Assembly: GCA_046757165.1 (NCBI GenBank)
Contig: JBHHXT010000210.1
Span: 1 to 8,673 of the forward strand
Length of the DNA stretch: 8,673 bases
Direction: 5' to 3'
Source of the DNA: a bacterium
Lineage (GTDB): Bacteria; Zhuqueibacterota; Zhuqueibacteria; Oceanimicrobiales; Oceanimicrobiaceae
Positions within the stretch are counted from its first letter, which is position 1. Each line of letters starts with the position of its first letter. The position numbers are program-made. This document shows positions 3,001 through 6,000 of the stretch, in pieces.

Positions 3001-6000
3001 TGGGACGCAACGACGTAATCATATTGGACAGTGTTTTTCAACAGAAGAAGACACAAATGGCAAGGGCGTTAGCTGCAAGAAAGTATGTGCTCGTAAATCA
3101 AGAATATGGGTGGTGGCAGAAAGAATAAACCACGAAGTACACAAAGGGCACGAAGTGGAATTTGATGAGCTGTCAAATCGAGTAATCGGCTGTGCTTCTA
3201 AAAGACGGTAACTTTACAACTCAGGGATTAATCAAAAAACGGAAGGAGAGGTGCAAAATGAAGCCTGAATCAAACAAAGAGATCAAAGTCCCAAACCAAA
3301 TCAAAGCAGATATCAAGGACATGATCGATCCCATTGTTGTTCGCAGAAGAACAATGGCGAAGGTTGGCGTGCTGGCAGCCGCCTTGCTGGTTGCCGGATT
3401 CCTGTCCTGGCAGCTCTTTTTTGCCCCCCCCAGCGGCGAAGAACTGCTGGCGCAAGTCGTGGCGGCTGCCGGCGGGATGGAAAACTGGAATTCGATCGAA
3501 CAGGGAACCTACACGCGCGTGCGAACGGTTTTCGATGAAAACGGCCAACCGATTGAGGAACTGCCAGCGGTTTACTCTTTCAGAAAGGGTTCGGACTATC
3601 GTTTGTTGATCGAGACGACCAACGAGCAAGGGCCGATTGAAATCGGTTTTGACGGCCGGGACTACTGGGCCGTGCAAAACGGGGAACCCGTCGACCCGGT
3701 ACAATTGGCGCGCAAACAGGGCTACATGTGTGATTCCGACCAGTGCACGCCCCTTTGTTCAGCTGAGATGTCCTTTTACCGTTTTTCGATTCCCTTCAAG
3801 ATGACGGACCCGGGGGTCATTCCGAAGGTTATCGGCGCCGCAGTGCTCAATGGCAGCCCGGTGTCGCTCCTGGAGATCACCTTCGAGCCAGAGATTGGGC
3901 GGGACCGCTGGGTTCTGTTCGTCGATGACGAGACCAAACTGATTCACAAAATCGAGCATTATGCTCGTGTCAGCAGTGATGTGCCGCCGGAAGAGATCTA
4001 CTGGTCCGATCACACCACAGAATTCGGGATTACGTTCAGCCACCGCAACACCTACTACCGAAGCAATGGCAAGAAATTGGAGGAGTTTCGAATCACCGAT
4101 GTCGATTTCAACTCTCCAATTCCCGACGAGAAGTTTCAAAAGCCGGGTGCATGGGCCGTACAATAAGTCAATGTTGGCAATGTAAAGGAGGTTTCGATGC
4201 TTCGACCTTACAGAATCGTCGATGAGAGTGAAGCGGATATTACTTATGAGTACAACTCTATGTTCACATGGCTACTCTATTCTGCTCTACTACTTTCAGT
4301 CATTGGCTACTTGGTCCACATACAGATAATGACAATCGTTGGCTCTGTCGGAATTGTGGCGGTTCTTGTGTTCAAGGTGAGTGCGGGGAAAAAGATTTCG
4401 TCAACAATTCATGCTGCTATGAATTCAGGCAGCGTAGAGATAAGTGGAAACAAGTCATCTCTAAAGAATCCGCTCCGCATCAAGGTCCCAAAATGTCGGG
4501 ATTGACCTCGAACTCTGCTTGGTCGGGATGATTGCTTCTCCCGAAGTGTTGAAGAGAAAATGTGGTGGTGGGTTCAGGTCTTGTGAAAACAGGAATTGTG
4601 GCACAGCAGGTTCGTGCCATTCACCAATCGCTAACAATAATTCAAGAAGGGAGAAGTAGTGATCATACACAGTTTGCAACTGTGTATTCCTCGCGGATTT
4701 GGACCTAAAACACGGTTGCAAACCGTGTTGGATCAGGCTTGGGAACATTCAATACGATTTGTTACGATTACTCTTCAAATCAAGAGTGCACAGGTGCACA
4801 GACCGGTAAACAAGGATAGCATAGAATGAAAATTGCCATTGCCGGAAAAGGCGGGTCGGGCAAAACGACCCTTGCCGGGACCCTGGCCCGGTTGCAGGCG
4901 CGACAGCAGAACCAGGATCTCGTGGCCATCGATGGGGACTCGAATCCCAATTTGGCGCTAACCCTAGGCCTTCCTCGAGAACAGCACAAAGAGATCAGGC
5001 CCATGCCACGTTCCGTGATCGAACGGGTCACCAATGAAGAGGGAAAGGCGCGGCTGCAACTGGCAAAAAAGCCGGATGAAATCATTCATGAATACGGGAT
5101 CGATACGCCGGATGGCGTCAAACTCCTGCTCATGGCCGCGGTCGACCACGCCGGTGCCGGCTGAATGTGCGGCGCCCATGCTGCCGTGCGCACGCTGGTC
5201 GGAGAAATGGTCGAGCAGTATGATCGACCGACGGTGATCGACATGGAAGCCGGTCTCGAACATTTGAGCCGGGGCACGGTTCGAAACGTCGATTGTCTCC
5301 TGATCGTCATCGAGCCGTATTTCAAATCGATGGAAACAGGCGCCCGCATGAACGGACTGGCTAAAGAACTGGGGGTCGAGTACGTCTATTGTATCGCCAA
5401 CAAGGTCCGGGGCGCCGAGGATGAGAGTGCGATTCGAGACTTCTGTAGCAATCGGGATATGGCGCTGTTCGGCGTCGTTCCAAACGATGAGAGCTTGTTG
5501 CAAGCCGAGCGTCAGGGCGTCGCGCCTTTGGACCATGAGAAAGAATGCCCGGCGGTTCTGGCGATTGCGCGTATCGCTGAGAAGCTCTTTGCCAACAGCA
5601 GGAATTGATCATGTCCAACGACAATCCCATTTACTGGCAGGATGAGATCCTGCAGATGATGTTTTGGATGCGAGGGGAGGGTTTGGGTGAGGTCGTATCG
5701 ATGAAAAAAATCATGCAGTTTCTCAATGCAGACGAGGGCGTTTTAGCAGAAAATATCCAGCGTCTGGTAGACAAAGGGTATCTCGGTTATGCCAGCACAC
5801 AAGAGGATGGCGCGCAGCGAGTCCTGCTGACGAGCTCCGGGATGGAAGAGGGCAAACGCAGATTTATGGATGAATTTGAATCCTATCTCGGACACGAAAG
5901 CCACATGGTTTGCGATGACCCCAACTGTGACTGCCATGAGCCGGAGTTCGAGGGAGTTTGCGCGCATCTCCTGGAAGCGCGGAAAAGAAGCCATCCTGGC

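Follow-up and report, generated by a model that had tools for sequence, protein, structure and literature searches.

A predicted selenocysteine form of the CooC-type ATPase associated with group 1l-type [NiFe]-hydrogenases

In the DNA analysed here, a stretch of 8,673 nucleotides from a Zhuqueibacterota genome (G000, 99.98% complete in 531 contigs) that is called the window below, two adjacent gene calls are separated by a TGA. The question raised by this locus is whether both calls are a single gene in which the TGA is read as selenocysteine (Sec) and, if so, what its product would do. An earlier note had interpreted them as one CooC-type ATPase, read through a TGA at the first cysteine of its metal site, which would insert nickel into a group 1l [NiFe]-hydrogenase in place of HypA and HypB.

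The region 4826-5608 (+ strand) was found to be a single frame with one internal TGA only, in the context DHAGAG*MCGAH, and it encodes a CooC-type P-loop ATPase of 260 amino acids when this TGA is read as Sec (U113). The protein has a deviant Walker A motif, GKGGSGKTT (4844-4870, +; residues 7-15), as given for CooC1 in the passages of PMC6006190 on that protein, and K8 and K13 of the motif were invariant in the aligned homologues. The best solved relative by sequence was CooC1 of Carboxydothermus hydrogenoformans (3kje; E 4.5e-34), which was also ranked first by Foldseek with an AlphaFold model of the 260-residue product (pLDDT 89.8). In the alignment to 3kje, the TGA, which is the predicted Sec codon (codon 113; 5162-5164, +), stands opposite Cys112, and C115 stands opposite Cys114. 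The metal-site motif U-M-C-G-A-H (5162-5179, +) ends with His118, a residue invariant in the hydrogenase-linked subfamily. Among the 121 matches listed, all 120 full-length homologues had the motif G-C-x-C-x-x-H with Cys at the TGA position, and the 121st was the second half of the window's own CooC, present as a separate protein entry of 147 amino acids. Therefore, the fusion of both gene calls into one CooC was borne out, and so was the claim that U occupies the place of an invariant Cys. Promoter and terminator scans gave results at chance level.

The distribution of the TGA was followed in genomes and metagenomes. In the phylum of the window, 121 genomes were searched, of which 20 had a match; besides the window, two orthologues of 73-75% identity had the TGA at this codon, which makes three of the 20 matching genomes, in agreement with the earlier note. 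The metagenome loci L151 and L192 carry DHAGAG*ACGSH. The TGA at this codon proved to be spread far beyond the five sequences known before: CooC with TGA was found at 98 of at least 120 metagenome loci retrieved with a sequence pattern (68 among the first 80 and 30 among the remaining 40; 22 of 120 were not CooC), a pattern that forces the TGA, so that no Sec:Cys ratio follows from it. The genome samples, which do not force the TGA, were evenly drawn and each takes in its centre genome. CooC was detected in 3 of 171 genomes from the phylum of a Gemmatimonadales record, two of them with TGA, and in 7 of 151 from the class of a Vicinamibacterales record, all with TGA; the phylum of an Acidimicrobiales record (Actinomycetota) gave a match in 20 of 301 genomes (15 TGA, 2 Cys only and 3 CODH-type). 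A Chloroflexota locus (G123) had two TGA copies of CooC.

The CooC subfamily with the His motif was represented by 36 genomes in total, 29 with TGA and 7 with Cys only; G467 has Cys at the codon. These counts take in genomes marked as unpublished (G123, G128, G285, G468, G498, G570, G597 and G683), draft MAGs make up most of the set, and related genomes are not independent data points. The matches listed by a related-loci search on genome contigs, which is no census, were mostly CODH-type CooC, and none of the plasmids searched carried CooC. In a FastTree phylogeny of 216 sequences, midpoint rooted, with CODH-type proteins thinned to 30 and duplicates dropped, the His-motif proteins formed one clade (support 0.87) apart from CODH-type CooC, and Cys forms nested among Sec forms at several places. 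We infer that Sec is preferred and not required, because some members, also in hosts without selA, have Cys instead.

A bacterial SECIS element was predicted at 5173-5201 (+), with a core stem at 5180-5195 that contains one bulge and an apical loop at 5185-5189, at -9.5 kcal/mol as computed for a trimmed 34-nt window. Its loop lies at +21 to +25 from the UGA, with G at +22 and U at +23. The consensus geometry, taken from section 5 of PMC13188914, places a loop of 3-9 nt at 16-37 nt behind the UGA, with G in one of its first two positions, on a stem of at least 4 bp and at most -7.5 kcal/mol; with G at loop position 2 and 5 bp with one bulge, the window's element falls within it. The element is at the weak end, with 3 contiguous pairs, or 5 with one bulge, and another fold was better in windows of 59-101 nt. 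The hairpin proposed earlier, 5 nt 3' of the UGA, has the lowest predicted energy and yet scored no better than shuffles (z from -0.5 to +1.7); it is also not the conserved structure, whose loop is at 5185-5189. The window RNA folded alone gave no signal over shuffles, and the signal came from the family.

In the family, bases +16 to +20 pair with +26 to +30 around the loop with G+22 and U+23, with the stem register shifted by two in a subgroup of about 17 Sec genes. At least 5 contiguous pairs around G22-U23 were found in 79 of 94 distinct Sec genes, compared to 5.5 +/- 2.3 expected, and a maximum of 14 in 500 runs, when synonymous codons were resampled with the amino acids kept. The third base of an Arg codon tracked base +19: A went with CGT in 46 of 47 cases, T with CGA in both cases, and G with CGC in 23 of 40, the remaining 17 being those with the shifted register. 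When later loci were included, the stem was present in 94 of 114 Sec genes compared to 5 of 17 Cys genes. In 34 of the 114 Sec genes, hand-picked and with the shifted register left out, 92% of cells paired with 33 two-sided changes, a level reached in none of 500 shuffles, and RNAalifold returned the same three core pairs. Among three close orthologues, none of the 4 four-fold sites in the SECIS differed, compared to 51-77% elsewhere. The G22-U23 loop was also found in 4 of the 9 other genes of G000 that we take to be read-through candidates, chosen by their motifs rather than by a family scan, compared to 33 of 1535 ordinary TGA stops.

The genes selA and selB and a tRNA-Sec were present in G000, and SelD appeared as a NifS-SelD fusion, identified by eye from its frame and from a cross-hit with HypE rather than by a family scan; the full set selA, selB, selC and selD reported before was thus recovered. 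A match to selA was found in 28 of the 29 TGA genomes, G125 being the exception, compared to 4 of the 7 Cys-only genomes, a comparison confined to these 36 genomes. A genetic code 4/25, or another reassignment of TGA, was ruled out in G000, as TGA was the commonest stop of its long ORFs (1145 of 2509).

On these data, the UGA at codon 113 would almost certainly be decoded as Sec, and the selenoprotein reading of CooC is strongly supported by sequence comparison. It is hardly credible that the gene is instead a broken one, through a nonsense mutation or an error in sequencing, or that it is expressed as two pieces from a TGA-ATG junction. An ATG does stand immediately 3' of the TGA in G000, G066 and G099, and the second half has its own protein entry; however, such an ATG was present in just 45 of 114 Sec genes, with no start codon there in the other 69, so that no restart is conserved, and the same stop occurs in 114 distinct sequences together with a covarying SECIS. 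Contigs from four sequencing runs, all of one study and three possibly identical to the source, had the same letters at the TGA codon throughout. Moreover, amino acid identity was 68-81% in both halves of the read-through CooC while 51-77% of four-fold sites had changed, and purifying selection thus acts on both. There is also a very small chance that the UGA is recoded as cysteine, through a tRNA-ReC with SelB and the same SECIS, the product then being an ordinary Cys CooC like the Cys forms that exist in the family. Recoding of UGA by such tRNAs at SECIS elements is reported in the relevant passages of PMC13582414, but the sole good UCA tRNA of G000 is a tRNA-Sec in Rfam (69.7 bits), a second ARAGORN call, on contig C42, being a poor 68-nt fold, and selA, which is needed for Sec only, accompanies the TGA in nearly every genome.

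The genes around the read-through CooC, all on the + strand, include hypD (476-1618), hypE (1737-2831) and a gene for a membrane-anchored protein that is DUF6503/LolA-like as judged from an Atlas look-alike (3258-4166), which precedes CooC also in G066 and G099. Downstream lie a conserved partner, winged-helix-like with a C-terminal His/Cys cluster H-x-x-C-x4-C-x-C (5611-6015), an FNR-like FAD/NAD-binding reductase (6072-6914) and a second CooC-like domain fused to a MarR domain (6930-8033), which is 39% identical to the first and has the Cys form G-C-L-C-R-A-H. The earlier note had placed CooC inside the hydrogenase cluster. This stood in part: the hydrogenase genes are outside the window, on contig C129 (hylS, five small membrane genes, hylL, two maturation-protease genes, hypF and hypC), but the last 55 bases of C129 equal the first 55 of the window (1-55, +) and match nowhere else, so this unique overlap joins the contigs and puts CooC about 12.3 kb behind hylL. 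In G066, CooC was found 2.4 kb behind hylL on one contig. G709 and G563 have these genes on contigs of 3.4 and 2.9 Mb, respectively, in the order cooC(U)-hylS-TM1-5-hylL-protease-His/Cys protein-hupD-hypFCDE, with neither hypA nor hypB in these hyl clusters. A hydrogenase or hyp gene was found at 43 of 68 metagenome CooC loci, and at 23 of the 28 with at least 5 kb, while hypA and hypB were found at none of the 68. The partner gene was present at 30 of these loci. In 40 aligned partner sequences the His and four Cys were invariant, the protein has a MarR-like winged-helix fold, and in one Atlas cluster of 53 members a look-alike is fused to a hydrogenase maturation protease. The partner is the best candidate for a HypA-like carrier, and a role as a regulator is also possible.

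The hydrogenase of G000 was compared with known types. On C129, five ORFs of 90-110 amino acids with hydropathy peaks of 2.5-3.4 lie between hylS and hylL, with hupD downstream. The same arrangement, five small membrane genes between the subunits and HupD behind them, is given for group 1l (HylSL, HylTM1-5, HupD) in the architecture passages of 10.1101/2020.08.06.239558, and the G000 cluster matches it. The best solved match of G000 HylL was 5aa5, the identity of G000 HylL to 13 plasmid-borne subunits, all 1h-like, was 39-43%, and that to the 1h enzyme of C. necator was about 41%, values near the 40% expected of a group that is a sister of 1h and distinct from it. In what follows, 'HylL-type' means at least 52% identity to the G000 subunit and '1h-like' 39-49%, with the reference HylL of H. 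roseosalivarius left out; the comparisons likewise do not take in the 1l clusters of Bacteroidota and haloarchaea, among them that of the type enzyme from this species.

Among 301 Actinomycetota genomes, CooC was present in 16 of 16 with a HylL-type subunit, and HylL in 16 of 17 with CooC, whereas CooC was detected in none of the 33 with a 1h-like subunit only (at E 1e-45, with 4-8 candidates scored per genome). Of the 36 CooC genomes, 31 had a HylL-type match, two of them as fragments only, and five had none; in the sample of the window's own phylum, HylL was found in one of 98 genomes, on the contig already known from G066. A HypA gene was detected in 7 and a HypB gene in 4 of the 36 CooC genomes, compared to 31 and 18, respectively, of the 33 1h-like-only controls; Fisher tests on these client-test counts gave small values, with kinship ignored. 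For six of the seven HypA and all four HypB matches, the host has a second hydrogenase, mostly adjoining; G467 has a partial HypA match and no second hydrogenase, and in G687 the contig with HylL carries a fragment of a broken hypB. Neither HypA nor HypB was found in the 531 contigs of G000, as had been stated before. The proposal of a HypAB-free nickel route was upheld as far as the link between CooC and HylL and the scarcity of HypA and HypB, which hold across several phyla; but a HypB match was missing in 15 of the 33 1h-like-only genomes too, so that the absence of HypB alone is not special to the hyl cluster. In addition, four 1h-like clusters that were read had HypA and neither HypB nor CooC, so that a linked NTPase is apparently not needed for every hydrogenase.

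These data bear on other functions for CooC. It is rather unlikely, though it must be given some weight, that CooC is a genuine selenoprotein of the hyl cluster with another job, such as handling another metal or the Fe-S cluster of HylS, or acting with the winged-helix neighbour and the CooC-MarR protein as a nickel sensor, while HylL acquires its nickel unaided or by another route. The MarR-like fold of that neighbour and the fusion of a CooC paralogue to MarR would fit such a role, MinD-type ATPases include Fe-S carriers and reductases, some 1h-like clusters lack a linked NTPase, and up to four CooC-like genes are present in some hyl clusters, more than one insertion step needs. On the other hand, the closest solved protein is the nickel insertase CooC1 with both metal ligands in register, HypA is missing almost wherever CooC belongs to the sole system, and the fusion of the neighbour to a maturation protease points to maturation of the large subunit. 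That CooC serves another nickel enzyme and merely sits near hydrogenase genes is most improbable. The characterised CooC proteins do serve Ni-CODH, but Ni-CODH/prismane (PF03063) was found in none of the 36 CooC genomes, which removed this client, and hydrogenase or hyp genes accompany CooC at most loci long enough to hold them. A LarA-family gene was found in G000 and in three of four other genomes tested, and urease in one of the five; against these as clients, LarA is served by a dedicated insertase, LarC, and urease by UreG, which was also seen in this analysis.

Nickel delivery to the hydrogenase is the reading preferred here. SelB would read the UGA as Sec through the SECIS loop 21-25 nt downstream. 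By analogy with CooC1, the MinD-type ATPase would form a dimer when nucleotide binds and, at the interface, coordinate one Ni(II) through two Se and two S atoms in an ATP-gated manner, and the nickel would perhaps be passed on through the conserved His118. HypCDEF would build the Fe(CN)2CO unit of HylL, CooC would take over the ATP-gated insertion of nickel for which other systems use HypA/HypB, and HupD would cleave the HylL tail after delivery; the His/Cys-rich partner may, speculatively, act as a HypA-like carrier. Given Sec, delivery of nickel to pre-HylL after HypCDEF and before HupD is quite probable from the gene context, and the explanation as a whole, in which the Sec form of CooC is the nickel step for the group 1l-type hydrogenase, is the best one and fairly likely. 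Selenolate is a softer and more fully ionised ligand than thiolate and recovers better from oxidation, traits that would suit scarce nickel in aerobic cells. A broader picture is tentative, with slightly less than an even chance: that 1l hydrogenases have a nickel route of their own, in which an Se2S2 CooC and the winged-helix partner replace HypA/HypB, with Sec in most of the hosts capable of it and a second, U-x-U-C CooC added in some clusters.

The families of Haft and Tolstoy 2025 are reportedly included in the 119-family table of a recent review. This table (Table 1 of PMC13188914, 2026) lists no CooC, and the word is absent from the text of that review. CooC is likewise absent from PMC9312934, from the text of BSepDB (its family list, Table S2, set aside), from the deep-Sep supplements and from the main text of PMC11683472 and PMC13582414; CobW is absent from PMC1976440, and the main text of the group 1l papers PMC13554262 and 10.1101/2020.08.06.239558, supplements left aside, has no CooC or HypA. 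No work on a Sec form of CooC, by title or abstract, was among the matches listed by a literature search for CooC and selenocysteine. The Sec form of CooC is thus a genuine and widely distributed selenoprotein variant that seems not to have been described before; protein collections carry it as two broken genes, and its hosts belong to at least five phyla. The claim of a first Sec metallochaperone of the CooC/HypB class was too wide, as the CobW-related P-loop selenoprotein NF041053 is already catalogued; this would be the first CooC-type selenoprotein found, not the first P-loop metallochaperone-like one, and supplements still unseen could change that.

This putative chaperone would use Sec to bind nickel and not for redox catalysis. 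There is good genomic evidence for what would be a HypAB-independent nickel step of group 1l-type hydrogenases, which offers an answer to their nickel supply in hosts mostly without HypA/HypB. HypA and HypB are treated as required in textbooks. Heterologous production of the enzyme may need CooC and its neighbour and, for UGA alleles, also selenium and a matching SelB. In desert soils, few H2-scavenging enzymes are more abundant than group 1l hydrogenases; if the reading is true, the oxidation of atmospheric H2 would be controlled in part by the supply of selenium, and a selenoprotein family that ranks among the more widespread would still be hidden as split genes.

Several known systems resemble the one proposed here. 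The CobW-related selenoprotein NF041053 (U-x-x-C), listed in Table 1 of PMC13188914, also has a predicted Sec in a metallochaperone-related P-loop NTPase. Its model weakly matches HypB and MeaB, with P-loop features common with HypB; the 25 best NCBIfam matches of the window protein did not include it and it was not found in G000, and it is of the G3E type with another motif, whereas the window protein is of the MinD type. HypA and HypB carry out the nickel step in the passages of the review PMC12134894 on maturation, an NTPase-gated step in a cluster with hypCDEF and hupD, as proposed here; the G3E-type HypB model TIGR00073 was not among the matches listed for the window protein and had no match in G000. 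A precedent for a MinD-family ATPase in hydrogenase maturation is HypB of Thermococcus kodakarensis, a Mrp/MinD ATPase that needs HypA and has no identified nickel site according to the HypB passages of PMC7055735; in contrast, the window ATPase has its own predicted metal site, and HypA is mostly absent from its hosts.

The closest system is CooC1 of C. hydrogenoformans (3kje, 3kjg, 3kjh and 3kji), which has the same fold, deviant Walker A motif and length and a C-x-C site in register. According to the CooC passages of PMC6006190, CooC1 binds one Ni per dimer via Cys112 and Cys114, at a Ni/Zn site in the dimer interface, and CooC of R. rubrum binds nickel weakly and does not mature the hydrogenase of its host; CooC is tied to CODH alone in the corresponding parts of the reviews PMC9164220 and PMC6006190. 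The window protein, of about 31-38% identity to CooC1, differs in its UGA-encoded first ligand (U-x-C), and its subfamily has an invariant His after the metal site where CODH-type CooC has P-E. Finally, the client of CooC1 is Ni-CODH, whereas the subfamily of the window protein occurs in 36 host genomes with no Ni-CODH found and is linked to hydrogenases.

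A sister paralogue of the CooC-type ATPase was recognised by the motif G-U-x-U-C-G-x-S-P-E-Q. Two in-frame TGA codons were present in seven of its 10 distinct copies (L118, L138, L150, L178, L195, L270 and L286), one TGA in L053 and L304, and Cys throughout in L313; among these loci, L053 and L270 come from unpublished genomes. A conserved hairpin of 6-7 bp with an AGUU loop lies 3' of the two TGA codons, and a CooC-like gene without the cysteines is arranged head to tail with the paralogue. The paralogue (G-U-x-U-C) is a candidate for a further selenoprotein family. For CooC itself, three clusters (L135, L139 and L168) hold a copy with TGA alongside one with Cys, the latter retaining the SECIS-like stem.

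Nine other genes of the source genome, G000, are likely to encode selenoproteins (C122:3034, C189:7951, C98:11009, C152:9464, C118:11414, C16:47307, C475:761, C237:5140 and C290:2367), and by their motifs these candidates are DUF3179-, Prx-, OsmC-, AhpD- and HdrA-like. SelD of this genome (contig C171) appears to be joined to a NifS domain and carries Cys.

The gene conserved beside CooC (window 5611-6015) encodes a winged-helix protein that is uncharacterised and has an invariant cluster of His and Cys residues; in one Atlas cluster a protein of this type is fused to a hydrogenase maturation protease. An LCIB-type beta carbonic anhydrase gene (L003:11906-12634) lies within the hyp region of G000, and in the close relative G066 the CooC-MarR gene is followed by a TonB-dependent receptor gene (L037:6146-8239), a possible nickel importer. 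A whalefall-1 RNA match (Rfam, 47.1 bits) at window 8208-8263 sits within a repeat occurring at many G000 sites; further multi-copy repeats of the window lie at about 47-209, 328-448 and 2874-2991.

HypA was present and HypB was without a match in 13 Actinomycetota genomes with a 1h-like hydrogenase (G636, G471, G638, G509 and nine more); in the four clusters examined, those of the named genomes (L307-L310), CooC was absent too. Two hyl clusters contain an extra large-subunit-like gene (L305:7038-8675 and L306:8574-10226, both on the minus strand; 38-39% identity, the range for both genes) with degenerate Ni-binding cysteine motifs. Both genes resemble a HoxV/HupK-type scaffold, a tentative label taken from PMC12134894.
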